Assembly (NCBI GenBank): GCA_973895155.1
Contig: OZ316895.1
Coordinates: 3,273,659 to 3,337,658 of the forward strand
Direction of reading: 5' to 3'
From: Marsupella aquatica
Taxonomy: Eukaryota > Plantae > Marchantiophyta
Length of the DNA: 64,000 nucleotides
Each line of letters starts with the position of its first letter. Within the stretch, counting starts at the first letter, position 1. The notes under the pieces are model-generated. The model ran no database searches and had not been told where the DNA came from. It was given only the letters and a program-made list of their open reading frames with translations. This document shows positions 5,852 through 46,345 of the stretch, one piece after another. A program made the translations under genes and the position numbers.

Positions 5852-6283
5852 TATTGAACTATGACGTATTTCTTCATGACGATACAACCATGATTCATGC
5901 CACACTCACGTAGTCGACACAATCCATACGTGGTTCACTTCTTTTCCAAGGTTACGTCCACACGAACACTTCAACTTTACTTCAGAATAGTCAAACACAC
6001 AAGCTCTCTCTCTTCCTCAAGTTGCTTCGTTACAATGAGCAAACACTACATCCCAACGGCTTACACTAGCCTTAGTATATACAAGGTCCCAGACGACTAA
6101 TTTAACCTCAGCTAAGACCCTAATTGTGGTTAACCTAAGTGTTGTAACCTATGAGTCACCAGACTAAGAGCAATCCTTAGCATATAGTGTGAGCAGTAAT
6201 TGGTTGGTTTGGTTCACTGGTAAACTAAGTAGTTAGCGAGATCTAAGGGAAGGCTAAACGGTAATTTGTCCTAAACTCCAACA
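5852..6283 (-). repeat. 3' LTR of copia element A
   Basis: Right end CCAACA (6278-6283) is directly next to the PPT. The left end is placed at TATTGAAC (probably decayed TGTTGAAC, 5852) by similarity to the GTAGTCGAC..ATACGTGGTTCAC block of the other LTRs in this window. The left border is uncertain. Confidence 0.6.
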
Positions 6284-6357
6284 CCCCCTCTTGACTTGAT
6301 CTCGTTATATAGAGGAGTCAAGTGTATGAACAAAGCAAAGTTGCGGAGACGAAGAGA

Positions 6358-6816
6358 ATGTGATCGATATAGACGTTGCGGGAATCAGCATTGCACATAT
6401 TACTGGTGATGTTGGGTTTCATATCAGCATTGGCCTGGATTTTGTATGATTCGCTGTTCTGCCATCACGGAGGAACACAAGAGGTAGATGACGTTGGTCC
6501 GACTATTCTTCTGGTCCAAGAAAATGTACTTGCTGCGATGGGGCCAGCTAAGCGCCGAACACCAAAAGAAGTTTGGCTAACCGAGAATCCGAAGAGATTG
6601 GATGAAGAGCGAGTGCCACAGACTGAAGTGCAGAATTCTCCAAAGCCACCTAGATGGTATTACGCAGTGGCATGAGGGCCACGGCCTGGAATATACACTA
6701 CGTGGGAGGAAGTAGAGCCACTAGTCAGTGGCTATCGAGGCAATAAATTCAAGTCCTTCAGAACTAGATAGGAGGCTGAGAATTATATGTTGCAATATAG
6801 TGCAGGGCCTCACTAG
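6358..6816 (+). pseudogene. Antisense ORF of copia element A: hydrophobic segment plus RNase H1 N-terminal hybrid-binding (Cauli_VI-like) domain
   Basis: One frame from ATG 6358: M*SI*TLRESALHILLVMLGFISALAWILYDSLF...PPRWYYAVA*GPRPGIYTTWEEVEPLVSGYRGNKFKSFRTR*EAENYMLQYSAGPH*. It matches the HBD pattern YYAVxxGxxPGIYxTWxExxxxVxGyxGxxfKsFxTxxEA. All four internal stops are TGA/TAG, one C>T change from CGA/CAG. Confidence 0.8.
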
Positions 6817-9800
6817 TGCTAGGATGTAACAAATCAACAAGAAGTAGGAATGAGGTGTTATTACCGGCGCATAGATGGTGAATCTGTGGACGTAACTTGA
6901 GTTGAACCACTTATTGCCAACTAGTAGGAAGCACCTTTGTAACGATCTCAACAACTTGATCCTCTAATTTAACATGTTGGATCAAGACTTCCTCTACAAG
7001 TACTCTCTCTCTAATAAAGTGATGATGACTTTTGAGATGCTTGTTTTGGCGTGAAATACCGGATTTTTTGTTAGTTTGATTGCGCTCATGTTGTCGCAGT
7101 ACATGTGTAGATCCTAACTGGTTGGAATGGAAGAGTTTATTAGATCGTTGGCAACGTCAGCGCTTTTCAACATGAGGTCAGCTGGTCCGATGCTGTGTTG
7201 CTGAAGTTCTTCCACTAGGTGTTTCAGGTATACACCCTCTTGGGCACCCTGTGAGAGAGCTCGGTACTCAGCTTCAGTAGTGGAGCGGGAAATAGTCGAC
7301 TGTTGTTTGGAGCTCTAGGCTACGGGACCCATAGCAAGTTTGTGGACGTAGCCCCTTGTTGATCTTTGAGTGTTGGGACAGGAGTTTCCCTAGTCAACAT
7401 CAGTATAACCTTGAAGCTTGAGTGGCCCTCCCTTTTCATAGAATACTCCAAGGTCCATGGTTCCTTTGATGTATTTGACAATGTGCATGGCAATGTCAAA
7501 GTGTGCTTGTTGAGGTTGACTCATGAATCTACTGATTAATCCCATTGAGAACGAGAGATCGAGCCTGGTATTAGCAAGGTAGATAAGTTTGCCTACTAGT
7601 TGGCAATAAGTGGTTACGTCAATGTCGGGAGTGCCTGTCTCAGCAAAGAGTTCAAGACCTTCAGGGAGGGGCGTAGATGTTGGTTTGCAGGTGTCCATGC
7701 CTGACTCTTGAAGTAGCTGTACGTTGTGCATAGAACTATTGATGCAAGAGAACGCCGCTAGTCAAAAAATGAAAGTCTACACCTAGAGAGCGCCTAACAA
7801 GCCCCAAGTCTTTAATCTTATATTTGGATTGTAGTCGTAGCATGATCTCAACAATGAGTTGCTGGCTGCTCCCAGTTATCAATAGATCATCTACAAACAA
7901 GAGAACTATAACAATTTTCTCTTCATGATGGCGTATATAAAGATTGGGGTCTAATGAGCTTCTGACGCACCCAATGGATTTGAGAAAAAGGTCTACTTCT
8001 TCATACCACGTTCGAGGACTTTGTTGAGACCGTAGATTGACCTTCTAAGTCTACAAGCTAATTTTTCTTGTTTGGGTGCTAGAAAACTATCGTTCGTGGA
8101 GTCAACAATAAGGGCGATGCAGAGATCAATTAACATACTCAACTGTGAGTGACATATGAAACTCATCATATTTTGCTGGCAGGTTGGTAATACATCCCGA
8201 AGGTGGCCGGGTACGCTCAAGGTTTTGATGTCGAGCTCAATGGACCTTAAGTGGCACATTTCGTGTAGGTGAAGTTATATCAGATGGAGTAGTCGAAGGA
8301 ATCTCGCTTAGTGAAGGAGCATCATCGAGTGAAGGGGTGTTATTTGTCAAGTCCTCAAGTGGACTGATAATATTCGGGGAAGATCAAGGTATCCGGAGCA
8401 ATAGTATTGCTCAACTCAGTTTGAGTGTCGGTCAAATAGACTCTCTTTTTAGGTAGTGGCTAGTGATGAAAAATCACCAGGAGTTGCTTTATCAACTATA
8501 ACGTCACGAGAAATTAAGATGTTCCAAGTTGCTGGGTCAAAGCATCAGTATGCCTTACTCTGGTCATGGTACCCTATAAGAATACATTTAATGGACTTGG
8601 ACCCAAGCTTGGTCCGATGTTCTTTTGAAATGTGGACATACTTAGGCAGTGCTTCCAATAATGCAAAAATGACCAACTTTTGGTGGAGTAGAGTGAACAC
8701 TTTCAAACGGGGTTGATAAATCTAGGGCTCGGGTACTACAACGATTGTTTATATGATTGGCTGTGCATACCAGTTCCTCCCAAAGAAAACTAAGATGGAG
8801 CGTTAGACCCAAATGCTAAGGTTCGAACAATTTCAAGTAGAGTCCTATTCTTCCTTTCAGTCACCCCGTTCTGGTGAGGAGTTCTGGCCATTGTTAGTTG
8901 TTGGGCCACTCCCTGAGATTTACAAAAGGACTGAAATAGCTCAAACATATACTCTCCCCCTCTATTGGTACGTAGACATGCTATTCTATGGCCGAGAGAG
9001 ACATCGACACTTTGTTTAAAGTTTTTGAACTTCTCTGAAGCTTTGCTTTTAACCTTTAGGAAGTAGACCCTTGTGTGCCAAGAATAATCATCCGCAAAGG
9101 TGAGAATATACCTGGCACCAAGGAGCAAAGCGTGGGCAATGGATTGCAAAGGTCACTGTGGACTAGTTCAAGTAGTTGTGTTGCTCAAAAGTTGGCCACC
9201 TTGGGAATACTACTCCGAGTTTGCTTGCCTTTCATGCAGGTCTCACATATGTGCTGGTCAGATGTCAGCATAGGAGCTCCCGTGATGAGTTTGCTTTGAG
9301 TCATGTACATGAACTAGACGCTGAGAGCTAGAATGGCCTAGACGTCAATGCCAGAGTTGATGAGTTGGTAGCCGGACTCAGCCACATGACACTGAGACAA
9401 GACCTTGGAGTGAAGTTGCGTTCTGTTGTTGAGATGTATGGGATTCACACTCAACACGTCAATGTTGTACATCTTATTGTAGGGGTCATGTGTACCCTTG
9501 AGACAGATTTGAGGAGGTCGCCGGTTGTTAAATACATAGCAATATTTTGAATTGAAGAGAACGGAGTGATCTTGGTCAGTGAACATCCCTACTAACAACA
9601 ACTTTCTAGTGATACTAGGCACATACAAAACATCACAGATGGATTTATTGCTTGAAAGTGGAATACATCTGGATCTAGAGATTGGCATCTTGGATCCACT
9701 AGCACTCAAGACACCTAACGTGGGCGGTGTGCTGCAAAGAGTGGAAAAGCTAGACTGGTTACAACCGATGTGAGTCAATGCCCCACTATCTAAGATCCAG

Positions 9801-9997: not shown

Positions 9998-10340
9998 TGT
10001 TAGGTATTTACTCAAGGTCTAGGGTTACAACATGTAACCATAGTTAGACTAACCATAGTCGGAGATGTGGTTAGGTTAACTAGGATGCACACTATATGCC
10101 AAGCGGTGTTTGCTTGGATAAGTGGAACTTAGGCGCATTGTTATGGAGCCACTTGAGAGATAAAGGAGAGCTTACACTTGGAGACTTGGTATGGCCGACG
10201 GGCTTAGAGTTCAATAAAGTTCTCTTGTGTGTTCCCGTAGACGTAGCCTCAAGGAGGTGAACCACGTATCTCTTATGTCGACTACTTGCACATTGGATGT
10301 GTCATGTGCTTACCATTGCGATTGTCGTCTATGCTCTACA
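9998..10340 (+). repeat. 5' LTR of copia element B (343 bp)
   Basis: Starts TGTTAGG, ends CTACA, and is followed after 2 nt by the PBS. Related copies at 46257-46345 and 46498-46829. Confidence 0.88.
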
Positions 10341-10342
10341 AT

Positions 10343-10354
10343 TGGTATCAGAGC
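10343..10354 (+). promoter_or_regulatory. Primer binding site (initiator tRNA-Met)
   Basis: TGGTATCAGAGC immediately after the LTR; the canonical plant LTR-retrotransposon PBS. Confidence 0.92.
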
Positions 10355-13300
10355 ATGCCTGGGAGGTGACGTGTGTTCGTGACGGGATTTCATGACGGTT
10401 TTTCTAGCGTTGAGTGTCGATGGATTTCCCGGAGTTCCGTCGCATGGAACTTGGAGTTTATGGGCTCAACGGATAGATCGGGGCAAGGGCTTTCTAACGG
10501 TGTGAAGAAATTGCTGAACGGAGCTCATGGTGCGAAGAGATCTAAGTTTTTGTCGTTCTGGATTTTGTGAAGAAAGTCGGCAACATTCGTGTTTGACGGT
10601 TTTTTGGAGGAGGATCCAGAGTTTGTTTTCTCGACGGTGTGAGCTCTACGGTGAAGGACGCATCGCATGCTGTAGCTCTACTTGTAGATCGGGATGAGCT
10701 GTTTGTTTTGGTAGCTGATTTGTTACCAAGTGAGTACCATGTGCGACGGGATGAGCAAAAGCAGTGTTCTGATTTTTTGACCGGTTATGGAGTCTTATTT
10801 TGCCTGAGAGGGGTTTCTTGTCGTGGCAATCGACTTGGAGGGAGAAGCGTCAAGTGTTTTGACTCAACAGAGAGATTGAGGCAAGATGATTGTTTTGAGT
10901 GTGGGATTGGCTCTTTGATGCAAAGAGGAAGGCTAAGCGAAATCAATTTCCTTGTTGGACTTGGTGACGACACCAAGTGCAATTCATCAACATTCGTTGT
11001 TGAGAAGGTACCATTTTTTCTCTTTGAAAAATTGATTCGAAATTGGCTATGGCAATTGAGAGAAATTTGTCATTTGTACCAATTTTTTTTCTCCCTCGTT
11101 CTTTCCTCATTTTGGGTGCTTCTTATATCGATCGTCACCGCCTCGGAGTCTAGTTTCCAAATCTAAAATCAGATCTTGATTTCGTCAAAACCCGAGTGAG
11201 ATATCTTGCATTTGGTGTCGAGGGGTACATTTTTCCGTGTGTATTTTCTGCGCGCGCGACCAGATTTCGACGACGAAGGGTGGTAGGGGATTTTGGGGGT
11301 TTGAGGACACGTGTCAGCCCCTCGATTGCTCTTCCAAAATCCCCACAGGGCCTATACAAGGGTCATAGAATATTCCAAAAAACCAGAGAGCTATTTTTTG
11401 TCCGTCCGTTAAAGATTCTGTCCACCGCAAGATAATTTTTTTCGTTTGTCTTTGGCAAGTTGCTAGCCATCGGAGTTGGCAACGCGGTACACAAATTGAA
11501 TTGCATTTCCGACATCGGGTACTAGTTCACATTTTGTTTATTCCCCGAGGTGGTCAAAACGGGGAGAATTCCAAGTTTTACCCACCCCGACCGAAAAATG
11601 AATAACTTTTACGTCGAAGTTTGGTTTTGATTTTGGTTTTCAGCGTTGGAAAGCTAGGCTCGTGGGCTACGTGGCAGTAAACTTTTGATTTTTTTGAGAA
11701 GTTGAGAAAAACATCATTTTTTCTTGATTTCTCACATGAGTGACTTGGAGGAGGGTTCTATTGAGTCACCGGAGAGAACAGAGGAGGAAGCAGAAGATCT
11801 AGCAGAATTGTGGTCACCGGTATTGCGGCAAGTGACAAGAAAAAGGATGGGAACAATCAAGCTTGGAGGCCCCAAGTTTGAGGTTACGAAATATGATGGC
11901 CGCATGGACTACTTGTTGTGGGAGCGACAAGTGAAGGGGGTACTCCGTGCAACGGGGCTTGCGAAATTGCTGAAGGACCAGTCAAATGATGTCGACAATG
12001 ATGACTGGCATGACATGCAGGAGCAGGCTGTGAGCACTGTGATGCTCTATCTTTAGCCTAATGTCATCAAGCAAGTGGCGGACCATATCGATTGTGCGTC
12101 ATTGTTTGCCGCGTTGGAGCAAAAGTACCATCAGAAGGAGCTGTCGAATCGGCTCTACACATCTTTGAAGCTGATGAGCTTCAAGATGAAGGAGGGAAGT
12201 GCAAAGATTCAGGACCATATCGATGGTTTCAACGACTTGGTCATTGATTTACAAAATCTGGGGGAGGATTTGAGTTATGAGCGGCAGACTCTTTACTTGC
12301 TTAGCTCTTTATCCTCGTCGTATCAGTCATTGTCACGAGTGTTGCTTCGTCGTGACAGGAAGACTATCACTTACAATGAAGTTGTAAGTGCTTTGTTGAC
12401 TGATGAATTGCAGCAAAAATTGACCATGCCCTCTCAGCCATCATCGTCGTCTGGTGCTGCCTTGAATGTGAATCGTGGGAGGTCATTGAAGCATCCAGAG
12501 CAGCGGACGAATGGGAGGGGAAGAAGTAAATCTAGGACAAGATTTGCTTCAAGGGGGAAGTCCCAAGAGAGAAAGCCAGTAGTCTGTCGGAAGTGTCTCA
12601 AGGTTGGTCACGTTAAGAGGGATTGTAAGGGTACGATAGCTGAATCTTCATCAGCCAATGTGGCTAGTGCTGATGGAGAAGTTGATTTACTCAATGATGA
12701 GTATGTTTATGAAGCCAGGAGTATGCCCTGTGCACATCATCTAGGAGAGCGAACGATGTCTGGATTCTTGATTGTGCTTGCTCCTTTCACATTTGTTACA
12801 TTCGCGAGTATTTCAGTTCTTACTCTGTTTCAAACGGTTCAGTTCTGATGGGAAATGATCACTCTTGTCAAGTTGAGGGTATTGGGTCTGTAAAGATTCA
12901 AATGTTTGATGACATTGTGCGCACAGTGTCCGGAGTCAGGTTTGTACCTGGCATGCGTAAAAAATTGATTTCACTCGGTGTGTTGGATTCAAATGGTCAT
13001 CAATGGAGCGTTATTGATGGTGAACTTCAAGTCAGGTCAAGAGAGACAGTGGTTTTGAAGGGGAGCAGAGAGAAGAATTGTATGTGTTGCAGGGCAATAC
13101 TATATGTGGAGAGGCCAATGTAACCAAGTCTCACGAGGGGATGACTCAACTATGGCATTCATGACTAGGCCACATGAGTGAGAAGGGTTTGACTATCTTA
13201 CGGAAGAATGAACTCATTTTTTATTTGCAATCTTGTAAATTAGAGTTTTGTGAGCACTACATTCTTGGAAAGTAACATCGTCATGCTTTCGGTATCGGAA

Positions 13301-15174
13301 CTCATCGTTCCAAAGCGGTTCTTGAGTACATACATAGTGACATGTGGGGTCCATCCCCAACTTCCTCACACTCTGGAAAGTTGTACTATGTATCATTTAT
13401 TGACGATTACTCAAGATTTGTGTGGATTTATTTCATGACGCATAAGTCTGATGTCTTGTCCATTTTTAAGAAGTGGAAGGCCCAGGTGGAGAATCAGACT
13501 GGAAACACGGTCAAGTGTTTGGATACAAGGGTGAAGAGTCTGAGGTCAGACAACGACGACGAGTACACTTCAGTGGAATTTGAAGAGTACTGTTCAGAAC
13601 AAGGGATAACTTGCCATCTCACCACAGTTTATACTCCGCAACAGAATGGTGTCGTTGAGAGGCTCAATCAGACACTATTGGAGCGGTCACGGAGTATGTT
13701 GAGCCAATCAGGTTCACCACAGGAATTTTGGGCAAAAGCTGTCAATACCGCAACTTATTTGGTAAATCTTTCTCCTTCTAGTGCTATCAATTTCAAAACG
13801 TCGTTTGAGATGCTCTATAAGCGACAAACAGACTATCATGGCTTGGTAGTTTTTGGAAGTGATGCATATGCTCTCACACCGAAGTAGAATAGGACCAAGT
13901 TGGATCCTACCTCCAAGAAATGTATTTTTCTTGGGTACCAGAGTGGTGTGAAAGCCTATAGGCTATGGGATCCTATCGCTTGTAAGCTCGTTGTCAGTAG
14001 GGATGTTTCCTTCAATGAATCCAGATTATTGAAGGAGGGGGAGAATACTCAGATCTCCCGTACTGACAAAGGAAAATCTCATATCCCGGATCTCGTTGAG
14101 GAAGAGATTGATCATGAAGTGCATGATCAGAGAGAAGGAGGTGCTCCAAGTATGGAGCTGGTTCCTGTGCCAAAGGAACAAGAGGAGTTTGTTGATGCTG
14201 GTGAGCAGCAAGTGGATGTTGCTGAGCTTCAAATTGTACTAGTAGACGCAATTCAACTGGAGTCATCGGCTAGAAGAACATTTGGTCGCACTGTACGCGC
14301 TCCTCCTAGGTATGGACAGTGGGTTGATTCATCTCAACTGCAAGAGGACAATTTTGCAGCTGATGATGAGGGTGATGCGTTAATTTTGGAAGAAGGGGAA
14401 CTGTGGTGCGTCCCATGGCTCCCTAAACCCCAGAAACCCCCCTTCACAAGCCGATTCCCGCAGGTTTTGCGCTTGGCGAGGCCGTTTTCGCGGCTTAATG
14501 GCATGGGACGCTGCTAACCTCTACTACTACTATTAACATTTTACACACATATACTGGACAGATCCTTCATCGGGTCATGAGATACGTACCCGGCCTAATC
14601 TAGGCCTTCCCTTGTCTTCCCCTCCTTCTTGTTAGGTATATTTGGATTCCGCCGCCGGAATGATCCCCAATAGGCTTGGTTAAGCCGCTAAGACCTCTCT
14701 CAGCTCGACACATCCAACTCTCACTCCCTTGCTTACTTTCCTTCATCTATTAGTTGATGTGGGCACTCTTCACACAAGTTAATGCGACACACAAATAGCA
14801 AAATGACTCCTTCTGACTGAGTCATACCATGCACTTGCCATACAAACAGTACATCTCATACACAAGCTCTGCGAACTAAGCCGTGAGGCCAACTCTATTC
14901 AGCTCTTAGGCATGAGGAAACATGAATATACACAAGGGTCATTGTATGACTAACGGAGAGCTTCTCTTACTACTTGATCCTAGCCCGGCTGGTGCAACTA
15001 AAAACTTGCTAAAGAAGAGGCCCTGAGCTCCCCGCTGCCCAGGTACTTATCCTAGTAGTGGATCCGCCTAATTCTTTGCAGCGTAAGCCTAATCTACCTA
15101 ACTGAATCTACCTATGTACAGCGAGGCAGGAGTACAAGTGTTGCTCTTACCAGTGGAACCACAATCCCACTAAG

Positions 15175-18100
15175 CTAAGTGTCAGGGCCGCCTCCTGGTC
15201 CTGATCCTAATCCTAAACTTAGAGATCTGAGCCCGCCCTGCCCATTCACGCCTCCTCCCTCCACATCCGCCCTCCTGAAAGGCGCGGCCCTCCACCACCG
15301 TCATGGCAGCGGTGTCTGTTCCTCAGTGGACGCCCCCAACGCTTCCTCCTCAGCCACTGCCGTAGGTTTGTTCTCTGACAGATTACCTGCCCTTGACTGA
15401 GTCAACTCTTCATCGGCCTGATTGGGTCCACCCCCGGCATCGGCTTCAACATCAGCCTCGGCTACGGCCTCAGCCTCGGCTACGGCCTCAGCCTCGGCTA
15501 CGGCCTCAGCCTCGGCTACGGCCTCAGCCTCGGCTACAGCCTCCCCTACACACTCAAGTGGCGGATTGGGTACCTCGGCTTCATTACCGAGTGTCGTGGC
15601 CTCGGCTTTGTCATCCCCTTCTTCTAGGGTAGTTGGATCCTCTACCGTAATCCTGCCCGAGGTCGGTGCTGGGTTTACCTCCATGGTCACCACGGCCTGT
15701 GGAGCCGTATTACTCCTTGACCCTGAAGGTTTCCGTTTCTTCTTCTTTTTTGGTTCGGCAGCTGGCCCCTTCCCCTTCTCACTTACTTCCGGCACTGGTG
15801 CAAATGGCGCGGTTTGTCCTTCGGCCAGTACCACTCCTGGTAACTTAGTGGCCTCAATTTGAGTTGGCCCTGTTGAAGCCAAGCACTTAAATACTGCGGC
15901 TTGTTTCTTCAGCCGCTCCGTTTGGTTGTCGGCTTGTCGTTGTAAGTTCTCTAGCTTCCGCGTGCTTTCCTCCAACTCTTCCTGCACTTCGTCCAGGTCC
16001 TTGCGCGCCTCCTCCAGCTCCTTCTGGGCTTCCTCCAATTCCTTTTTAAACGCAGTACGTTCTCTCCTCCCGGGTTGCTCTTAACTCCTTGTCGAGCTCT
16101 GCAATGATGACAGACTCCATCTGGTTCATCTTGGCGTAAGTCTGATCGAGCACATTGTCCTTCTCACACAGGTCGGCTTTGAAGCTGGCCGTCAGGGACG
16201 CAAGCTCCTGCTGCAGCGCAATAATCCCTTGATAGGATTTCCCTAACTCGACCTCCTTCTTCTCAAGGGCTCCGCGGATAACCTCGAGCTCCCCCTTCAA
16301 TGCCCTTTCCCTTCTCTGGGTCTCCGCCATGGCCCGGTTGTTGGCTGTTATGTGGGCCTCCTCTGCATCCCTCAGCTCTCGCTTCCACTTCTCCCGCTCC
16401 TTGATCGCATCGGCCAACTCTCCTTGGGTTCGAGTCAGTTTATTCTCGATAATCCGATTATCAGACTGTGCGGTATCCAATTGGCCCTGCATGATATTTA
16501 GCTCATGCCGCTTAATCCGCAGCTCATCTTGGGCTTTCTTGGCCGCCCTCAGGTCTTTGATTTTGGCTTCCCTTGCCCTAAGACGATGGATGACCTCGTC
16601 CTTTTTGCTTCTTTCCAAAGCCATCGCTTCTTCTAATTGGCGCTTCTCCAACATCTCCCTCTGAAAAAAGGGTCCTTGCTCCAACTCCTCCCCAAAGATG
16701 CTGAGCGCCAGCTCTCCACACATTTCCCCGTACTCCATGGCTCTATCCTTAGCATAGGTGGAGTAACTAGAAGTCATCGGCATCAACCACCGCGGCCTCT
16801 GCTCCCAAGCCGTCTTGCGGATTTCTTCTACGGTGGCAAGAGGGTTGCTTTGTTTTTCTGCAAGCCGCCTGATGTCCTCTGGCCATTCTCCTCCTGGTAA
16901 ATCATTTTCCCTAGCCAGGGCTGCCTCCTCTTCCTCCCTGATTCGCTCCTGAAATTCCTGCGCCGTCTGTTTTATGCCGTCAAAGCTCGGGGGAGCGACA
17001 TCTGGTGGGGGAGACTCGGGGCTGCTCTGCTGGCTTGGGTTTAGGGTAGTTCGGGGCTGCTTTGCTGGCTCCCCACTCTAAACCGGCCACAGGTCCTTAC
17101 TCCTGGAACATGATGATCCGACCCGTAGCCGGAGTCATCATTGCTGTAGTCCTCTACCGCCTCCTCGGCTTGGACTACCGGCTTCTCCCGCTGTTCTCCT
17201 GGTTTTGTCGTGAACACGGCTTCACCTCTCACCGGTCTTGGTTCCTCCTCCGGCTTCCGTGTTGATCTCTTGTTCTCCTTGTCGTGGCCGGGAGCTACGG
17301 CCTGCTTTTCCTCGGCTTCGGGACTTGAGGCTCCTACATACCTCCGGACTCCCGGCTCGTGTTCCGGCCTCCCTCTCTCCTTGACCCCAGTAAAGGGGTT
17401 TTCCCTTGTAAGCCGGCTTAGGCCTACCTCTGGAGCAGTGTCTTGCATTGGTGCCGTTGTCGTTGCCGTTCTCTTTTCCTTCTCCAGCAATTTTAGCAGA
17501 TTCTGCATGCCTGGTTGCTGCATCGGCAAGTCCCCCGTCCTTGGCCTAAACACCTGCTCGATTGTAGGACTGTCGGGCGGGTTGGGTTTCTTCATTGCCG
17601 GCCTCTGTTTCGGAACGTCCTCTGGTGCCCTTGCCTGTAGGGGAAGTACCGGGGCAAAGGTCTTACTTCGGGCATACCGGCATAGTAGCGGTACGTGATA
17701 GCCAAGCCGGGATACGCTTCCCTTGCCGATCACCAGTTGTTCCTCCTTCAAGATCTTGTTTAGTTGAGTGAGGAGGTAACCATTGTAGTCCCGGCTTGGG
17801 TCTGGCCTCTCTGCCAGATAGACCTGTGCCTTGCCTATCTCTGGTCTCGGCCAGTTGCAATGCATGGTCACCCGCAAGAAATCGATCATCTCTCCTATAT
17901 GCGGGTTGGTGCAGGTGTTCCAGAAGAAGCCATTCTTTGTTGATGGTCCTGGGAACGACCGAAACTCCTTGTCAGGTAAGGTCTTCCTGGTATCAACCTT
18001 GGTCTTATTACCCATCGGCAAGCCAAACACTTCAGCAATCACCTAGGGAGTGAGATAGAAATCCTTCCCATACACCCTTGTGGAATTGGTCTCGGACTCC

Positions 18101-19071
18101 CACGATCCCACGAATTCTAGTAAGTCTGAATCTGGCACCTCCGACTTCAGCCACGGTAACCTTACGAAGGCTTCCAAGCCGGATCCGGCCATGAAGCCCT
18201 GGTATTTCCGAGTCTGCATAGCCGTAAAGCATGTATCCTCCTCCTGTGCAAAGTATAATTGCACTTCCTCGGGGAGAATCGCCGCCCAACCTTTCCAGGT
18301 GTCATCTCTTGTTGGAATGGCGTTGATGGGGTCGACCTCCTCCTCCTCGGCTTCTCTTTGCCTCATGCTTTGTTGTTCTGCTGGCTTCTTTGGTGCCGCC
18401 GACCTCGTTCTTTTTGCCAGGGTGGCCTCTTTGTTGTTGTTCCCCTTCCTCTTCATCTCGGCTGTCGTGGATGTCTCTCCTAGCACGGTTGCCTTTGTCC
18501 ACCCCTCCATGCTACCCTTCAACTCCCAGTGTATGTCGTTGCAGCGTTTGATGGCTTCTCGGATGCCGACGACTCTGTCTTCGCAAAACAGCAGGTCGTC
18601 TAGCTCGTTGCCAGTAGGCGTCCACAGGAATTCAGCCTTGATGAGTTCTCCTCCTAAGAAGGCAGCTTTCTGCAGCTCCCACAATCGGGCGAGCTCCTGC
18701 CGTTCTCGAGCTGCTCTCTCTGATTCTTCGTCCTCGTAAGTCCCAATGTACTCAGTTGCCCGTTCGAATAGGCATCCCCAAAAATGTGTCGCTTGATTGA
18801 CGTTGCTCATACCCTTCTCGAGTTGATAGTCGGTATCTGTTCCCACCCTGAGCGCTTGCCTAAGCAGTTGACAGTAGTTGGCCGCCCGTAGTCGCCTGCT
18901 CAGTTTGTGCTTGCAAATGAGCTACTATTCCTCGCGAGCGGTCCTTACCCCTCTCCTCCTCTGGTTCTCCCTCCCGTTGGTTACCCCTAGCCGCCGGCAC
19001 TTAGCATGCCCTAACCCTAATCATGTTCTCTCCCCTGACATCCTTACTTCCGGTCTCAGCTCAAGTTCCAT
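15175..19071 (-). pseudogene. Degenerate ~1,300-codon ORF inside the insertion (globular domain, low-complexity linker, long coiled coil, acidic repeat tail)
   Basis: Co-oriented ORF pieces 18043-18846, 17041-18042, 16046-16786 and 15301-16038. In-frame ATG at 19071, read through TGA/TAG stops. A few frameshifts near 17040, 16790 and 16040. Heptad-rich E/K/L segment at about 15900-16700. The 3' end is either 15301 or 15175. Confidence 0.7.
15453..15541 (-). repeat. 18-bp coding tandem repeat (AEAEAV)n
   Basis: GCCTCGGCTACGGCCTCA repeated about 5 times, in frame with the long ORF. Confidence 0.9.
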
Positions 19072-20873
19072 AGTCACCCTTAATTGTTTATATTTTCCTT
19101 ATTTATGTAACTATACTAAGGTGTTTCTAGGGTACACTTCCCTTTTCCCCTTAAACTAGCCCAGTGATTCCTGGTTAGGCATCACAGGAACCTTCTTCAT
19201 TTGATGAGGCAAGTGCTTCAAAGGAGAAGCAGAAGTGGACTGCAGCAATGCAAACGGAGATGCAGTCACTGAAGGACAACAAAACTTGGGAGTTTGTTAA
19301 GCTGCCTAAGGGTCAGCAAGTGGTGGACAGCAAGTGGATTTACAAGCTGAAGGATAATTCTGTAGGAGGTGGATCGAAGGAGGCTAGGTTGGTAGCAAAG
19401 GGATTCACATAAGAGAAAAGTGTGGATTACAATGAGGTCTTCTCACCAGTTGCTAAGTACTCTACAATACGGCTATTGTGCGTGCTTGTTGTAATGTTTG
19501 GTCTGCTACTAGATCAGATGGATGTTGTCATAACTTTTCTCTATGGCACCTTGGAAGAGGTGATCTTCATGAGACAGCCGCTAGGTTTTGTGAAGAGAGG
19601 ACAGGAGGAATTGGTTTGCAAATTGCTGAAATCCTTGTATGGGTTGAAACAATTACCAAGACAATGGAACAAGCGGTTTGACGATTGGATTCGGTCACAA
19701 GGTTTTCACAGGAGTGTGCTTGACCCTTGTGTATATTTGAAACCGGTGAAGAATGTTATCTTTGGGTTCATTGTTTTAGTACTTTATGTGGATGACATGC
19801 TTATTGTAGCCAAGGATAGGTCTGAGATTGTTAAGCTTAAGGCACTGCTAAGTGCAGAGTTTAAGATGAAGGACCTAGGACCAGCTAAGAAGATTTTGGG
19901 TATGGAGATCACTAGGGACTTGGAGGCTGGTAAGCTATGGTTGACACAAAGCAGTTATGCGAGGAAGGTAATTGCTAGGTTCAACATGGGGGATAGCAAG
20001 CCAGTAAGTACCCCTTTGGCTGCACACTTCAAATTGTCATCAGCTTTTTGTCCCACAGATGCTACAGAGAAGGGGCTGATGTCAAAAGTTCCTTATGATA
20101 AGGTAGTGGGAAGTCTCATGTATTTGATGACTTGCACTAGACCTGATCTTGCCATGGCTATGGGCAAGGTGAGCAGGTACATGTCAAATCCAGGGAAGGT
20201 ACACTGGGAAGCAGTGAAGTGGATTATCAGGTACTTGAAGGGTACCGTGGATCATGGTCTTTTATTTGATGCAAATGCAAAGAATGCGAGATCATTGATT
20301 GGCTATGTAGATTCTGACTATGGACAAGATCTGGACCGAAGGAGATCAACAACAGGGTACGTGTTCACACTTGGCGGTGGATGCATAAGTTGGAGGTCTA
20401 CTTTGTAGAAGTGTATTGCTCAGTCTACTACAAAAGTGGAGTATGTTGCAGCAACGGAAGCAACGAAGGAAGCAATTTGGTTGGATAGACTTATCACTGA
20501 AATGAGATTGCCACAGGGGAATGTGAAGCTCCATTGTGATAGTCAAAGTGCGCTCCACCTTGCTGTGAACCAGGTGATGGAGAGTAGAGTGAAGCACATA
20601 GATGTCAGGTACCATTTTATCAGGCAGACTGTGTCTGATAATTTGTTTGAGCTAGTCAAGATAGACGGTAAACTCAACCCAGCTGACGCATTTACCAAAG
20701 TGATTCATTTGGAAAGTTTCTCTAGACATCGTGACGTGCTGTAGGTTTTGCAATTGCGTCACAAGTAAGGGTTTTTCTTAACATTCGCTGTAATTACTGA
20801 TATATGCTCTTCTTCACTCCTAGTAATAGGCTACGGCTTAGTTTTGGTTTGCTCTATTAGAGAGGGGAAACCA

Positions 20874-20975
20874 TGTTGGTTTTTGTCCAGAACTTCCCGC
20901 TGAGGAATCATATAGTTAGCAGTATTACCCTCCCCTAGACCAGAGTAACCATAGACCTTGAGTAAATACCTAACA
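20874..20975 (-). repeat. 102-bp inverted mini-LTR-like unit with minus-strand PPT
   Basis: Its reverse complement starts TGTTAGGTATTTACTCAAGGTCTATGGTTAC (30/31 identical to 9998-10028) and ends CCAACA. On the minus strand it is preceded by PPT-like GGAGTCAAGGGGGAGAT (20976-20992). Confidence 0.65.
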
Positions 20976-21080
20976 ATCTCCCCCTTGACTCCAATCTCAA
21001 AATCCTAAAATCCAGATAGCCTAACCTGAAATCCAAATAGCCTTAGAGTGAGTGGGTTGGACCTGAATTTTTTAATTTTC

Positions 21081-21500
21081 TTTACTTGGGTTTGGTCACA
21101 CCCGGTTAGAGTAACTAAACCCAGTTGGGTTAAAATCCAGATAGCATTAGAGTGAGTGAGTTGGACCTGACTTTTATTTGTTTACTTGGGTTTGGTCAGA
21201 CCGAGTTAGAGTAACAAAACCCAGTTGGGTTGGAGGTGCCTTGATTTTCTGTACTCGGGTTTGGTCAGACCGAGTTAGAGTAACAACACCCAGTTGAGTC
21301 GGAGATGCTCTGATTTTCTTTACTCGAATTTGGTCACACCCAGTTAGAGTAACCAAACCCAGTTGGGTGAGAGATGCTCTGTTTATCTTTACTTGGGTTT
21401 GGTCAGACCGAGTTAGAGTAACAAAACCCAGCTGGGTTAGAGATGCTCTAAGTGCAGTTAGTAACAAAACCCAGTTGGGTTAGAGATGCTCTAAGTGCAG
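21081..21500. repeat. ~69-bp tandem array, about 5-6 copies
   Basis: Unit TTTACTTGGGTTTGGTCAGACCGAGTTAGAGTAACAAAACCCAGTTGGGT... starting near 21081, 21181, 21250, 21320 and 21388. Confidence 0.9.
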
Positions 21501-21604
21501 GAGCCATGCTGAGTAACTGGACTCCGTATAGTGCGGTAGGGAAGGGATAGAGAAATAGGTTAATGTGACGGACCTGTTCGAAGGAGCGAACGAACCCTTA
21601 CGAG

Positions 21605-21700: not shown

Positions 21701-23616
21701 ATGGTAATCGCCGTTCTTGCATCGAGTTTGTCAGCTTCGTGTCATTCTTGATATCAATCGAAAGTCCGCGATCGGTGATTATGAAAATGAGCTCTGATTC
21801 GGTAGATTTGTGTGAGTTTTAGGGCCGGAAGTGTGCATTGAACGATTGAAGTATGACTTCGTGAATGGGTCAAGCTGGGCATCTGTTGAAGTCTTTGGTG
21901 CAATTTATACGGTTTAGGTCATCGGGCTTGGAAACTAAGTTTACGAACCTGGATTTGATTTTCCTCTGTGTAGGTGAAGTACGCTCGTGAACCCGACAAT
22001 CCAACCAAGTGTGAGTACTTTTATGAGTTGGCTTGTTCTTGCGAGATCGGCCTGAAAGTGTGTCCTTTTGTTTAGAGACTGGTCTCAGCTTTTGGCGGAG
22101 GATATGTTCGTCAGTACCTCGTCCCTTTCGTAGTTGTCGTTCTCCTTTATCATTTTTGTTGAGTACCCTTGCCTTCCATGCAGTAGTGTATGTGTAGGTG
22201 CCTTGCTCATATCGCTGACTTAGATCGTGAATCGTGCTCGAGCTGTTCCATTTTCTTTTCCTGAAAGTTTCTGTAATATTGTCATGCAGCGTGCAAGGCA
22301 CGTGGTTCGGATTTGCGTGTTCACTTCAAGGTGAGTTTCGGGCACATCTTTCTTTCTCTTAGCTACCGAAATGCTAGTTGCGGTATGTGCGGAATCAGTC
22401 ATAGAGTGTGTTAGTTTCGATCCTCCGATGCCACGTCGAACAAACCCTAGCAATTGTGACTACTACCAATAAATGATTGGGAAGATTTTGTAAACCTTTG
22501 TCACTTAGTTTCAGGCTTTCCGGTTGCTTGAACTTAGTTCTTACGGTGTTTTGCTGTGGGTCACGTTTTCTAGAACACTCGCGAAACAGCACAGGCCATT
22601 AAGAAGTTGGAGCTGGTGAAAGCCAAGAGGTATTTGGAAGATGTTCTGGCTCACAAGCAGGCCATCCCTTTTCGCCGGTTCTGTGGTGGGGTTGGACGGA
22701 CTGCTCAGGCAAAGTCTCGTCACTCCAATGGGCAGGGACGTTGGCCTGTTAAGTCAGCGACGTTCTTGTTGGGTCTTCTCAAGAATGCCGAAAGCAATGC
22801 CGAGGTATCTTCATAATATTACATGTGTTCATGCGACATATTTCTCCTTTCTCCTTCATTATATGAGTGCTCGGAAACCAAATTGCAATACTTCATCAAA
22901 GGTGGCACGCTTGGAAGTATGAATGCTTTGTTGCAATTCCTTGTTCCCTTGAAGATTTCGATGGGATTGAACCCGCAGGTGAAGGGTTTGGATGTGGATA
23001 CGCTCATCATATCTCACATTCAGGTGAACAAGGCCCAACAACAGCGAAGACGTACATACCGGGCTCACGGCCGCATTAACCGTGCGTGTTCCATCACATA
23101 ATCCATTGCTTTTTTTCAAATTTGTGACAACATCTTAAGCAGTTGATATCATGTGACGGGGTCGAACGTTGTCCTCGTAATTCTGTAACCAGGCAGGAAG
23201 CTTTCAAATCTGCTGGGGCGCCCTCTGTACAAGCTTTGGCACTGTAGTTCTCCTTTGCGAGTGTCTGTTGTATCTTATCTTTTGCTTGTTGCGTCATGTG
23301 TAGCCTACATGTCTTCTCCTTGCCACATTGAATTAACACTGTCAGAAAAGGAGGTACCTGTAGCGAAAGAGGTATGCCTTTTTCTCTGCTCTTCTTGTGA
23401 AGCACTTTGCTGGAACTCCAGATAGAATTCAATTGTCGTTTCTTTGATCCTTCGTTCAGCCTAGTGGTTACCTGCTTGTCGAAGTTGTTTCAGTTCCTCG
23501 AACTTAGTTGTTGCGATTGTTCCGTTCACTCTATCTATATGTAGGTCGATGCCGAAGTTGCGCCCAGGAGGCCTAGGAAAGCCCAAGCGCGCTTGAAAAG
23601 TGGCACATCTTCATAG
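21701..23616 (+). CDS. RPL17: 60S ribosomal protein L17 (uL22), 7 coding exons
   Basis: Exons 21701-21703 (ATG only), 21974-22010, 22290-22330, 22574-22804, 22979-23081, 23304-23371, 23545-23616. Translation [36 protein letters not shown]...GRWPVKS...[23 protein letters not shown]. Confidence 0.96.
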
Positions 23617-27277: not shown

Positions 27278-30200
27278 CTATTCTTGTTCAGAGACACCTA
27301 CACCAAACAATTCTAGGCTTTGCAGAAATTCCAGTGTTTTCGTATAGGCAGGATCTTGCCGATCTAAGGGCTTGCAAGAGTTCACGTGATCAGTGCCTGG
27401 TAAAACCTGTTCCCAGTCAACATCCAGCAGGCAGCAAGGTAAGTACATGTTCAGTGAGAAAAGTGACACTGTTGACGTTGAAATCGATTTCATGACAGTT
27501 AACTTGATAAAGCCATTCTAGTAGATGGACCTGAGAAATCAGAAAGGACCTAAATCTATTTTTTTTCTCACAAGGGTTGCGCTTTATGCTCAACCGCAAG
27601 CTGAGACCTAGTGCAAAGATGAAGACCAACAGCAGTATGGGGAATCGTCGAGCTTACCACTAGTTCACCAAAACCTGGATAAGCTGATTCAATTGGTACT
27701 ACTTCCAACCGTAAACCCCATCCTCCGTAGCCCTCAACTAGAGGAGTGACTTTAGTCTGTCAACCAACTCAGTACCGTCAGACTTGTCACAGCAAATGCT
27801 GAGATCTTACAATTTCGAATATTTATATTGATCGAGGACAATTACAATAAATAAATGACGTAGGCAGCAAACGGAAGGTTATGCAGATGCTGGGAGTAGC
27901 TTCAGACTGAGTCGCCTTGATCCACAGGTAAGCATTCTAAAGGAGATTCAAAGTATACAATCAATTATTGTTTCTACTGACCTCGCTGAAGCTCAGAATA
28001 TTCAAATGCCCTTCCTTATGTAATTGACGTAAGTAGCGATTTAACTCCTCCAATCTCGGCGATCCACTCCTCAACTCTCCTATCTGCACAACTTACCCCA
28101 AAAGCTCAATCTAATCGTAATATGATTTTATTAATTCCACAATAATCTTGAGAAATCTTCATTTCTAGTTTCACATTTGACCTGCCTCTAGGGGCATATT
28201 TAGATGTTTTTCAAGCACTTCCGTTAGACTTAACCCACCGAAGGAGCAGGCCGTAGGACATAACCCATTCGCCAAGGCATGTCAGCAAGCTTGCTTCCAA
28301 AGTGTGGACAGCTATAAAAAACCTGCAAAACAGCATAATCATCCTTGTCAATTTATGCTGAAGTTCACTTCATCACATGTACAAGTTCCAAGAATGCGGG
28401 ATTGAAGGCATGTATGACTGCGAGTGTCAAATTTCTCAATGATTACATGGATTGACGGGACATCTGCTTACAATTCTTACCGGAATGAATTGCAAAAAAT
28501 ATAGCGACAGATTCAGTTCTATTGCTTGGCAAAGGTTGATAGGACTCTTACAATACCAATTGTATTATTCAAAAGATTTGTCCGTTTTTCATCTTTTCCT
28601 GCTAGCAGTAACATCTGCTTCACCACCAGACCACCCATGCTGCACAACGCAGTGAGTTGTCACTTCTACATTAAAACTTAGAGACAGATAATGCCCCACA
28701 ACTTGTCGAGCTCTTTTGACAACGACACTAATCAAATTATTGCAAGCCCCGTCCACGTTCCTAGTGGGAAAAGTTCAATGCAACCAAGCTAGAGCAAAAA
28801 TAATTGTGGCACAAAGATGAAGACGGATATGACACACGAACATACTTATGTGTGATAAAGACTAGAGAAAAACGGATAAAACATAAAAGATAATCACCTC
28901 AACAAGATTTGATTCATGAGACACTCGAACATACCTATGTGTGACAAAGACCAAAGGGCGCTCCCCAACACCTGCTGCAAGCAATTTATCGAGTAGCATG
29001 GAGCTCACTTCCTGTCTCACAGAATTCAGACGAAGCCTGTCGTAAAAATTAGACTCCCAGTCAACAATTGGATCGGAGTAAATTTGATCTACAGGGAAGT
29101 TAACATTTAGCAGTAATGAAGTGGACCACTTGGAGAGAGACTGTATAGACTATACCTAAACTGTAAACATATAACAAGAGCTCAATATGAATAAGACTAA
29201 TTCATCCAGTATTGCAGTTGATGACGAACAGGTACCAGATACTGGATAAGTACTAATAGCTCTACCTGAAGCGGAAGTGTTGCACCCGACCATTCCGACA
29301 GATTTGTCTGTTCACAAGAAAAGGTGACGGGAAAGCAAATCAGAGAGTTTACCCAATGCCAGGAAAGAACCAAAACCCATAAGCTCTATTCTTTCCAGCT
29401 TCCCCATCCTCATAACACGAAGGGAATGGTTTTCAGGGGAAACGAAATTAGTTTCAATTGACAATGCTAACCACAGCTGTGACACCAAAAAACAGGGTAT
29501 GCTGGAATACAGATGGTGAAAACTGATTGCTGACCTTGTATCTGACAGAGAGCAATCTAGATCGAGGAAGATCACTGCCTAGCCATTCTGCTGGCCAGCA
29601 TGTTCCCTCCTTCCCAGCTTCAACGTCGATTCTTTCAACTAAAGGCGTTGTTGTTGAGGCCTTGTTGTCAGCAACTCTCCATGTTTTAAAAGGTCCTCCA
29701 CGCAGGCCATGAATAAAGATCACATCCATTACAGGCTCATTCTTCACCATCCCTTTTCCTGTCGGTTCAATCTCCTCCATGGATGAGTTAGGAAGACCAT
29801 CAGTCGGCTGGCTGGTCTGCAAAGATCCAGCACTGTTTTGTCTGGACTCATTCCACACTTCTTCAGTGATTTTTTCGTCCTTGGCTCTCAACTTTGTTTT
29901 CCACATTCGAGAGCCGGTATTCATAATGAAGATTCCATCCTCGTACCGAGGCCAAAATCCGTTTCCCAAAGGCTCGCCAGTTCTGACTCTGGGTTTCTCA
30001 TTGTGATTTCCATCATTGAGCGTCGTACTCGTTTTAGCCATCCGAGCTGATGATACATTTTGCAAGCAAGCTAAAGCATAGCTCCTAATTTTTTTGTCAC
30101 TGTTACCTGGAATTTTACCATCGGCACAGTCCTCAAGCCAAGTTACTAGTGCCTTGTCTTCAGCGATTACTTCTGAAACTCCAGGCTGCAGACTCAGAAC

Positions 30201-33200
30201 TGCTAGTAGCCGTGCAGCATGCTTTCGGATGTGGGAACACACAGACAACACAATGTCTCGGTCATTCTCAAGTTTTTTAGGTGGCGCTGGACGCTGAGTT
30301 TGTTGAACTTCGGGGGTTGAACTGGAAATTTCAGAAGTTTCAGACGCGGCCCATTGCTCGTAGTCATTAAATAACAAAAACCTTCTCAGCAAACACATGA
30401 CTCCTGCCTCTAAGATTCTTTGGCGCCAAACAGGGTCCTCCGCTGTCAACTCTGTTAGAGCTTTGATAGCTCTCTGCACTGCAACAGCAGCTTCAGTTGC
30501 AGTGACTTTAGGTAGAGCCTCCCTAGAAGCAGGCTTTGATGAATTACCCATTACATCAAGTCCAAGCAGATCTATCATTGGCAATTCAGCGGCACTCTCG
30601 GCCACCTCCACATCTGTGTCTGATGTATCAGCTCTATATGCAGCTTCTTGGGCAACTACCTTTGCAAGCTGAGCAGCAACAACAACCGCTGCCTTCATGG
30701 CTTGGTTCTGCAGGGAACAAGAACTGGCGTTATGAAGACGGAAAAAATACTTTAGTCGCAGCCTGTGAGCTGCTGCTGCTCTCTAGATTCGGAACTGCTA
30801 TCTCTTGTATTTGCTATCGAGCTGTTCTTGGAGGTAACTGTTGAGACGCATCAGCGATGTTAGCTCCAAAAAGAAGACAGGCTTATTCTTTTCAATTTCC
30901 CCTTCGTGGCGTCCATTGTTTTACAGTGAAATCTTCGTCAAAACCAATACTGTCAGTACAAAACTCACCTGAAGTTGCTCTCGCTCCTTGGCCTCTGCAA
31001 TCAGGTTTGCAGGTCGCTTCCCCTTTCCTGATGCCAGCCTCCCATCTGAGATGACTTCCAAGAGCAGCATTGCCAACCAGGCTTGTGTGACAGGAATACC
31101 TCGGAGTCCCAGATCATTGACCAATCTATCAAGAACTCGAGACCCACAAGAGCGAGTAACAGTATCACTTGTCATGTTACAAACCCACTTCAGTAAAATT
31201 GCTGCCCATTTTTTGCTTTCATCGCTTGGTAGAATCTCTCCCTCATCTGTGAGTACATCGAGCACCTGGGCCAGTGCCCCTTGAACAAGTGTATTACCCT
31301 CGGACTCACCTGCAATCACTCGCATTACAGGAAGACCTTCCTGTAGGACAAGACTATGAGCAGATTTACTTCGAGAGACACAACTGGTCAGGGCAGCCAG
31401 AGCAGAGGTTGTAAGGGAAGGATCTTTCAGTCTACCAGCCTGGGCAGCAACGCTGATTAGCGCAGAGCTCCAACGAGATGCAACATCAGCAGTAAGCGAG
31501 AAGGGTTTACTAGCAAGGAGTGACCTCATAGCCAGAGCTCCATGCCATTTCACTGTTTTCTCGTGGGCCAAAACTGCAACTAAAAGTGCGTCTCCATTCT
31601 GATCTAACTCAGCTATTTTAGCACGATTGGCATTGGATGCCCGAGCCCACATTGCAAGTGCCCATGCTGCTAATGGTACTGTAATGTGCCGTCCATGAAG
31701 GTCATCCCATAACCCACACTTTCTAGCACCATATTCTGAGAATGCTGTGCTCTCAGCTCCCCAGTCTTGCCTAGGGCTAATATTATTGTAAAGTAGACCG
31801 GGATGAGTCTTCTGACTGGTGACAAAGATTTCCTGTGTCCGCATATCGTTTAGAGATTGGGTGAGTCCGAAAATACCTCCCTCAAGATTACCCAAGAGAC
31901 CTCTAGAGAGTACCCTCTGAATTCCCAGAATACTTGTGCCACCATTTACCCTAATCCCAATTCCATGGGCACCTCCCTTATCTTTTGCAGCCTTTCCCGC
32001 CGATTCCCCATCATCCGGGCCTTGGTCATCCAAAATCCAGCCTCCATCTTTAATAACTTGGAGTGCTGCTGCGATGTCAGCAGGATCTGCGTTACCCGGT
32101 AGCTTCGGTGTGACTCCACTTCCATCTTCTGCATCACAGCTGGAAGTGATAAGATCCACGATGGCTGTCACTAGCATACTTCTCCCAATGGAAGTTCCAC
32201 CGTCCAAATGAACTTCCTTGCTCCGATCTTGCAAACCCTAGACAATGAACCGTCCCAGTTCAACCGGTTTATTGGACAAGGTTTCGTTGGCCAGATCATG
32301 ACTAGCTTGACATTCACATAACTAAACAGGATGGAATAGCAGACACAATTATTATGTACAAGCTGGTTCAAATTGCATCTCAAAGCCAGCAAATAATACA
32401 GGTGCAGATGATGACTCAATTCAACAGTACCGATTCTAGATTCCTCTAGTGAAACCAGCAACAAACATACTAGAGGTCGCCCAAGTCGGGTATCACGAAC
32501 CTGCTTCACATGTAGGGAAGATGCAAATTGGAAAAGATATGGCAGTGCATGTGGCCTGCTTAAGACAGCCTCACAAGTATTCTCATCGGACAGCAGATGG
32601 GCCAGCGCTCGTGAAGCTTCAGCTTGGGTTGCTAGACAAACTCCGGGATCTAAAATCCCCACAGCCCTTAGCAACCAGTCCACAACACGACCTCCACCTG
32701 CTTCCACCACCGCTTTCCTGCGATTCTCGTGCGCAGCCAGATCTGCTATTAACGCAGCAACTCCAGGCATAAGCCAACTACTCAGCCCAACAGTTGGTTC
32801 CTGTCAAACGAGACTATGTCAAAGCGCTTAAAATCTGGTGATCAAGAGGATTCCAACCTCACGAAGGCCGTATAGGAGTGGAACCTGACTGCGCGACCAC
32901 AAGAAACTATATTACCGGTTAGAAATTCAGATAGTCACCCCAGTTCTAAGCTCTGAAAGTTGACGGTAACGATGTAAACCTCTGCATGCCAGACCCGTAC
33001 TTTCAAATCTTTGCAAAGAGATCTCTATTTGCGAATAGGAAATCATCTTTGCAAATCGTGTAGTGTACATATTCAGGCCACCTCACAGCTTCACTACTGA
33101 TTAAGAGAGGAATTACCTCACCAACGGTCAGCAGCACAGAAATAAGACATCGAGCCAATATTGTTGCGGCTGCTGCTGCGTCGACAACGTCACCAACGCC

Positions 33201-34199
33201 ATCCCTGAAGAGCATCCCCATATTTTCCTTGAACTCAGCTAAAGTGTCCCACAAGATCGACCACGTAGACTTTAGTACTTCGTGGGGACGAGCAGGATTC
33301 CCTTCTTCGTAACGCACAGCCGCCACTGCTCCGACAAGCATCACCATAGCTGCGGCTCCAGTTCCCGCAGCGTAATACATTCTCCGCCAAGACGAAGCCC
33401 GAGGCGGAGAACGATCCTCAGGCACGCGTTCAGCCTCTCCATGAAAGTTGGCTGAGGATAATAGCCTGGGCAAATATCTCCTAAACTTGCTCTCCTTGCT
33501 AGTCTGTTGATCCAAGAACTTGTTAGCCTCACGGTCTTCAGAATTTCATTTCGTCCGACGCAAACGGTGATTTCTCCGAAACATTGTGCCTTCAAATTGT
33601 CCATGCAGTTGCTTACTTCCTCTGCCGTGACACTTGAATTCAAATCGAAACAAGCGCGATCATTGCTGCTCTTTTTGTATCCCAAACCTCAGAGACAAAA
33701 CAGAATCCTTCTCAGGTTAGACGCAACGCAACCTATCCGCCACCGTAATGGAAACAGGCCCTTCATATTAAGAGCCAAGATTGAGGGATACTAAAAACGT
33801 TAACATGTGTGGAATAATTTGTTCATCATGTTGCTCAGCAGTTGCACTGCTCCTAATTGAGTTCACGAGAGGTGAAATTACCTCGTAGGAGTTTTGTTCC
33901 GGAGAGCCGTATCGAGTGGTAGACTTTGGAGAAAGCGGCGTCGATGTAGAATAAGCCTTCCTCCAAGGCAACGAATCTTGCTTCAATCCGGAGCGCAAAA
34001 TAGAGGGCCCCTCCCCTCGTTTCTTGCCAATCGAAATTCTAAGTAGTACACCATCAATTCCAGTGAACAGAGTCCCTCCTTCAACTTCAAGCCCTTGCTC
34101 GGCGCTGCTGGGGGCAGGAGCTTGACGGGAGATTGCACCATATCTAGAGCACAGATGACGACGGACCTGATTTCGGACCAGCATTGGTGCTGATTGCAA
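27278..34199 (-). CDS. SERAC1-like protein: ARM-repeat region plus C-terminal alpha/beta-hydrolase, about 12 exons
   Basis: Exons include 34199-33882, about 33503-33118, about 32800-32501, about 32237-30969, about 30708-29534, then small exons TNLSEWSGATLPLQ, ..ERPLVFVTHS|MGGLVVKQML, VFYSCPHFGSKLA, ..PIESAYPGFGELV and VLPGTDHVNSCKP..* (stop 27278). DVIFIHGLRGGPFKTWR and WPAEWL are SERAC1 hallmarks. The N-terminus resembles a mitochondrial presequence. Confidence 0.88.
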
Positions 34200-46256: not shown

Positions 46257-46345
46257 TGTTGAGCATAGACAACAATCACAACGGTAAGCACATGACACAT
46301 CCAACGTGCAAGTATTCGACACAAGAGATACATGGTTCACCTCCT
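46257..46345 (-). mobile_element. LTR end fragment of the copia B family
   Basis: TGTTGAGCATAGACAACAATCACAACGGTAAGCACATGACACATCCAA... is close to the reverse complement of 10252-10340. Confidence 0.8.

Follow-up and report, generated by a model that had tools for sequence, protein, structure and literature searches.

An antisense reading frame with an RNase H1-type hybrid-binding domain in a copia element of the liverwort Marsupella aquatica: a candidate membrane-anchored helper

Introduction

Why should a copia retrotransposon carry, on the strand opposite its pol gene, a separate reading frame ending in the hybrid-binding domain of RNase H1, and what might the product do? Antisense ORFs between pol and the 3′ LTR (aORF-3R) have been described in maize Grande (gene23), rice RIRE2, Silene Retand, bean PvRetro13, and the fungal element Boty (PMC7264820). 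In plant LTR elements, what antisense extra ORFs do is still an open question, mainly because their products have few known counterparts (PMC7264820). The case considered here lies in a 64,000-nt stretch of the Marsupella aquatica genome (contig OZ316895.1, positions 3,273,659 to 3,337,658), referred to below as the window. An earlier note, made from the letters alone, had proposed that the frame encodes a membrane-anchored accessory protein separate from pol.

Results

A dead copia element with an antisense frame

The element carrying the frame, here called element A, has the following features.

5855-6283, minus strand: 3′ LTR of A, 429 bp, with TG...CA ends (from sequence; partly similar to the LTR at 9998-10340)
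6284-6297, minus strand: polypurine tract (PPT) directly before the 3′ LTR of A (from sequence)
6929-7400, minus strand: decayed copia RNase H; an insertion of 24 residues, specific to the clade, lies at about 7120-7200
7393-8088, minus strand: reverse transcriptase (RT), C-terminal part (tblastn)
8485-9152, minus strand: integrase core and SH3-like part, frameshifted
9572-9799, minus strand: protease-region beta-barrel (Pfam Pol_BBD)
9998-10354, plus strand: LTR and primer-binding site of an opposite-facing element interrupting A

The minus-strand order of pol (protease-integrase-RT-RNase H, from 9799 to 6929) is that of a Ty1/copia element, as is the PPT (6297-6284) followed by a TG...CA LTR (6283-5855). 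Element A is a dead copy: its pol has frameshifts and stops, no N-terminal part of RT was found by tblastn, and it is cut off at about 9997 by the opposite-facing LTR. There is no second copy of its LTR within the window; the LTRs at 5855-6283, 9998-10340, and 46257-46833 are related. Summed contig depth is 1e4 to 1e5 on the first two of these and about 1e2 in the interior (depth is not copy number), a pile-up that suggests many solo LTRs or non-autonomous derivatives.

The closest match to the pol of A among 58 is P0182 (63%). In a quick tree of 52 of 59 rows (seven rows of less than 200 aa having been dropped), the two fall in a five-row clade with an SH-aLRT of 97, and A is set apart from all 11 named rows, which are angiosperm only. 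The RNase H of this clade retains its acidic motifs. In A and its closest relatives it has an insertion of 24-26 residues (about 7120-7200, minus strand), predicted with moderate confidence to be helical; two motifs are separated by 55-57 residues in 6 of the 38 measurable rows, and by 30-32 in 29 of them.

The features on the opposite strand are as follows.

6306-6312, plus strand: TATA-like TATATAG, a possible antisense promoter (weak; sequence pattern)
6358-6816, plus strand: antisense accessory ORF of 152 codons, interrupted by stops at codons 2, 5, 106, and 138
6373-6468, plus strand: conserved N-terminal helix with a hydrophobic core (codons 11-29), predicted membrane anchor
6469-6657, plus strand: variable, mostly acidic linker, predicted to be disordered
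6658-6786, plus strand: RNase H1 hybrid-binding domain (Pfam PF01693, Cauli_VI), codons 101-143

Translation confirms an opposite-strand frame between the end of RNase H and the PPT, reading from ATG at 6358 through a hydrophobic stretch, a linker, and WYYAVA... to TAG at 6816. The 153 codons first given for it count in the stop, leaving 152. Its position, antisense between pol and the 3′ LTR, is that of an aORF-3R. The four internal stops lie at 6361, 6370, 6673, and 6769. The exact start is uncertain, since the first five codons align poorly with the homologs described below and these begin at different points, P0002 at about window codon 5 and four others near codon 1. The TATA-like sequence that had been pointed out upstream is present at 6306, but is weak promoter evidence, because the pattern TATATA[AG] has 24 matches in the window, counting both strands.

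The hybrid-binding domain

Residues 101-143 of the ORF protein match Pfam Cauli_VI with an E-value of 7.9e-18, which led us to reject a chance ORF; the PF01693 profile scores are 64.9 bits (for this match) and 69 bits, against a gathering cut-off of 21. An origin as part of pol was also rejected, the frame being on the opposite strand, as was a full RNase H1 gene: Cauli_VI is the only Pfam family in the ORF protein, and the catalytic RNase H domain is absent from the chain. The window has no second copy of the domain. There were three PDB sequence matches, all of them RNase H1 chains, headed by the N-terminal domains of the yeast and human enzymes, and the predicted domain of the homolog P0002 superimposes on the human domain bound to RNA/DNA (3BSU) with an rmsd of 0.9 Å over 44 columns. 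Profile search, PDB matches, and modelled fold all bear out the original identification of this region as the RNase H1 N-terminal/Cauli_VI domain.

In the human protein, Trp43, Lys59, and Lys60 make up the binding surface (PMC6846478, available text). Among the seven members of the family described below, the Trp43 equivalent is retained in six (P0059 has Arg) and the Lys59 equivalent likewise in six, while the Lys60 equivalent is Ser or Ala in all seven.

The nearest clusters in the Atlas are Basidiomycota Cauli_VI proteins (0.91, 0.87, and 0.86); residues 1-45 alone gave no usable match there. Among viral contigs, none of 14 pattern matches was confirmed, and among metagenome contigs just 1 of 214, an ordinary bacterial-type RNase HI locus (L001).

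A family of open-frame homologs

A word-based search passed one of nine candidates, P0002 (148 aa, 50% identity, 92% cover), and an exhaustive search found 2352 proteins at E-values up to 0.001. Six of the 150 listed match over their whole length (P0002, P0046, P0059, P0060, P0073, and P0074); P0037 matches in its C-terminal part only. All six are open frames, a property for which gene callers select, and all share the layout of hydrophobic helix, variable acidic linker, and domain. Family members are 141-251 aa long and 33-53% identical to one another. Over the seven sequences, including the window's, mean pairwise identity is 37% in the helix, 19% in the linker, and 60% in the domain, which is the pattern expected of selection on the protein. 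A profile of the helix made from the six homologs picks out the window protein (E 2.8e-8), with no match among the other 173 of 180 proteins; within the window it has one extra match, non-significant (E 0.85). When the alignment served as query, 35 out of 7477 candidates passed, including one named family member, from the leafy liverwort Calypogeia fissa. P0074, which has a protein annotation in a liverwort assembly, could be a host gene.

A further protein, P0163 (181 aa), has an amphipathic N-terminal helix, which the helix profile misses, followed by a linker and the closest domain outside the family (76.8 bits). It is possibly a distant relative.

The proposal of an accessory protein separate from pol is upheld by this stand-alone, conserved family with open-frame members. 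The layout shared by the six also shows that the frame is not a one-off, a possibility raised in the earlier note. We consider it very probable that the ORF is an accessory gene at the level of the family.

Position relative to copia RNase H

P0059 extends about 70 residues beyond the usual end of the family, as a read-through tail. Its context was approached by a codon-consistent test, in which any codons encoding the tail were allowed and the opposite strand was scored against an RNase H end. The strand opposite the tail can encode 33 of 40 residues of the P0182 RNase H C-terminus, with a score of 156. P0182 was the best of the 10 pol matches (of 58) with a usable C-terminus, the next scoring 102. 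None of 1000 shuffles (mean 85, maximum 118) and none of 172 natural protein tails (maximum 139) reached 156. An earlier opposite-strand test, more permissive and made against the decayed RNase H ends of the window itself, showed no signal (220 and 236 of 300 shuffles scored as high). A reverse test, in which the tails of P0182, P0183, and P0189 were compared with the domain end of three members, was negative in all nine pairs. A short motif matched not only P0059 but 23 of the 5000 shuffles and one of the 172 other proteins. From the domain to the RNase H motif there are about 71 codons in P0059, compared with about 50 in the window.

Sister sequences were found among contigs. In run X3, a diverged contig covers 6760-7524, from the end of the ORF into RNase H, with 85 letters other than the window's. 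Another contig of this run, seen in run X4 too, covers 6267-6767; it can be aligned at both ends, with 106 unalignable letters replacing 112 of the linker. The diverged contig and a window-identical one both start at 6760, which in a word-graph assembly would imply a shared stretch covering the codon-138 stop. The sister copy may therefore share this stop, counting against recent intactness.

Since the P0059 tail fits the RNase H end of A's copia clade, the tail-to-tail placement with copia RNase H likely recurs, as judged from sequence. Copies at the same position, which the earlier note had suggested looking for, are suggested by the P0059 tail and by the sister contig next to copia RNase H. 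The related suggestion that the frame was probably intact once is supported for the family, in its open-frame homologs, but is put in doubt for this copy by the codon-138 stretch that its sister appears to share. From two elements and one sister contig we infer that the family travels with A's copia clade, and it is likely tied to this one liverwort clade.

The N-terminal helix

An AlphaFold2 model of P0002 (from seven rows; mean pLDDT 69, pTM 0.38) places a helix at residues 3-38 (pLDDT about 90) and the domain at 95-145, joined by a linker of low confidence at 39-88. The maximum Kyte-Doolittle value over 19 residues is 1.9-2.4 in six of the seven members. P0060, at 1.09, has a weak helix containing Glu. 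In the helix, 16 columns have hydrophobic or small residues on every face and there is a conserved A/G/S/A stripe; Arg/Gln/His and Tyr follow. Its hydrophobic core is short, and by these predictions it plausibly fits a short single-pass anchor, possibly self-pairing. The membrane anchor originally proposed, for which a hydrophobic helix of about 17-21 residues would be expected, is a prediction that suits the hydropathy of six members, and P0060 poorly; on balance, we lean towards membrane association of the ORF product.

Neighboring sequences

A second set of copia sequences lies on the plus strand, with gag, protease, and integrase at 11706-14517 separated by a gap of about 4.9 kb from RT-RNase H at 19413-20744. 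The LTR-like sequence after 20830 is unlike the LTR at 9998, so that these may be two nested elements. The gap holds four long, GC-rich, adjacent open frames (259-343 aa; 15301-18921, minus strand) with no Pfam match above cut-off, and within them a short tandem repeat (15414-15551). A 69-nt tandem array at 21029-21501 lies beside an inverted 31-nt piece of the LTR start (20945-20975). At about 22000-23600 (plus strand) there is what we take to be a spliced host gene, reading like ribosomal protein L17/uL22. A run of long open frames at 29454-34220 (minus strand; 442, 438, 210, 180, and 150 aa) has no Pfam match.

Discussion

Possible roles of the protein

The reading that we prefer, tentatively and at somewhat less than an even chance for the whole, is that of a membrane-anchored, non-catalytic helper that binds hybrids. 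The ORF would be transcribed from its own promoter near the PPT. Its product would anchor in an internal membrane by the N-terminal helix, with the C-terminal RNase H1-type domain facing the cytosol or nucleoplasm and gripping the element's own RNA:DNA replication intermediates, the ligand being hybrids rather than dsRNA. The role would be to hold or localize hybrids, not to cut them, because the protein has no catalytic domain and the RNase H of the clade keeps its acidic motifs; for this latter reason the ORF would not be a replacement for a dead enzyme. In CaMV P6, the region containing this domain is required for replication (PMC3836500, available text). Against binding by this mechanism stand the loss of the Lys60 equivalent in all seven members and the Arg at the Trp43 equivalent of P0059, the sole member with an inferred context. 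The main difficulty is one of location: copia reverse transcription occurs inside particles, so that a membrane-bound domain needs a route to the hybrids.

The protein might instead act as a sink for the element's dsRNA, for instance that formed where sense and antisense transcripts overlap at its 3′ end, keeping it away from Dicers. The earlier note had suggested an anti-silencing role of this kind by analogy with P6, which does have a dsRNA-binding region (PMC5670102, available text); antisense ORFs can give rise to dsRNA (PMC7264820), and the missing Lys60 equivalent would fit as well. The analogy is weakly based, however, since silencing suppression by P6 maps outside this domain, to the N-terminal D-I, and local suppression was kept after a deletion in the miniTAV region that overlaps the domain and blocked replication (PMC3836500, available text). 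The human domain, in tandem copies, is moreover a hybrid-selective sensor (PMC10639055, available text), and we regard an anti-silencing sink as unlikely. Equally unlikely, in our judgment, is a soluble scaffold with multivalent hybrid binding, in which the helix self-associates or docks on Gag or RT-RNase H; such a protein would be a P6-like factory protein in miniature, or a split RNase H1 with its binding domain acting in trans. The P0002 model does have one continuous 36-residue helix with a small-residue stripe, the helices of P0060 and P0163 are amphipathic, and P6 too has, besides a variable region and this domain, an N-terminal helix that self-associates (PMC5670102, available text). 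On the other hand, the helix core is hydrophobic on all faces in six of the seven members, unlike a soluble coiled coil, and likeness to P6 outside the domain is absent in every search made. The 24-residue helical insertion in the RNase H of the clade could serve as a docking site, but it occurs in P0184 and P0185 as well.

Two further readings seem quite improbable. A binding domain without a catalytic one could block access of RNase H, which would let the protein trap the element's own hybrids and lower transposition, as a form of copy-number control. Far fewer contigs cover the interior of A than cover its LTR, as such restraint might leave it (depth, again, is not copy number), but an excess of LTRs is the usual outcome of solo-LTR formation and of non-autonomous derivatives. 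Alternatively, the frame might be a passenger or host gene, captured as a host or fungal fragment and without a role for the element. This would suit the broken state of the window copy, the annotation of P0074 in a liverwort assembly, the frequency of stand-alone Cauli_VI proteins in Basidiomycota (in the Atlas), and the capture of PF01693 by a Pleurotus helitron (PMC4289320, available text). It sits poorly with members that are only 33-53% identical and yet keep both ends while the linker varies, and with the recurrence of the tail-to-tail placement in P0059.

Relation to known systems

The aORF-3R genes share the position and orientation of the window ORF; those described are conserved family-wide, and have been proposed to have their own promoter (PMC7264820). 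They differ in being nuclear or in having SMC or Transposase_28 domains, whereas the window ORF is in a copia element, has about 150 codons, and combines a hydrophobic helix with PF01693. RNase H1 itself has the same domain in sequence and fold (PDB 3BSU, 1QHK), with the Trp43 and Lys59 equivalents mostly kept in our family, but in the latter there is no catalytic domain in the chain, the domain is C-terminal behind a hydrophobic helix, and the Lys60 equivalent is replaced.

The caulimovirus P6/TAV protein (viroplasmin) is likewise the product of a separate gene of a reverse-transcribing element, with an N-terminal helix, a variable region, and this domain. P6 differs in being sense-oriented and multifunctional, with silencing suppression outside the domain; neither its D-I domain nor its 520-aa layout is found in the family, whose members share the one domain with it.

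Among other LTR elements, the SIRE env-like ORFs (copia) and other sense transmembrane ORFs are also extra ORFs after pol, some of them with transmembrane segments, but are in sense orientation, share no conserved domain with the present family, and have no reported hybrid-binding domain. Tat, Chronos, and Archon elements have gained an RNase H-related module as an extra RNase H (aRH; PMC5348765, available text); these are gypsy elements that gained a catalytic domain inside pol, whereas here a binding domain alone is found as a separate antisense gene.

REXdb considered extra ORFs only from 250 codons upwards, its main text as available does not mention liverworts, and all entries in its table of extra-ORF domains (Additional file 4) are for gypsy lineages, with PF01693 absent (PMC6317226). 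The 15 extra domains detected in a screen of 121 angiosperm genomes were all in gypsy elements, and none in copia (PMC9289625, available text). No description of a copia element with this gene was found in the literature searched, including the available text of PMC7102451 and bioRxiv 10.1101/572842, most subscription journals being outside the search; within this literature, the impression that no such copia lineage has been described was correct.

Implications

It is possible, and we would put it a little lower than the mechanism itself, that a liverwort copia lineage has its own miniature viroplasmin, in which an antisense-encoded membrane anchor and hybrid-binding domain organize or shield replication intermediates at a membrane. 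If this is true, a plant copia lineage would have acquired a functional domain, and there would be an antisense extra ORF from whose sequence the biochemical activity can be deduced. The members of the family are short and include open frames, and the binding residues of their domain are known, so that binding, location, and effect on transposition could be directly tested in Marchantia. Copia elements and caulimoviruses would also seem to have independently placed the same hybrid-binding module in a separate helper gene.
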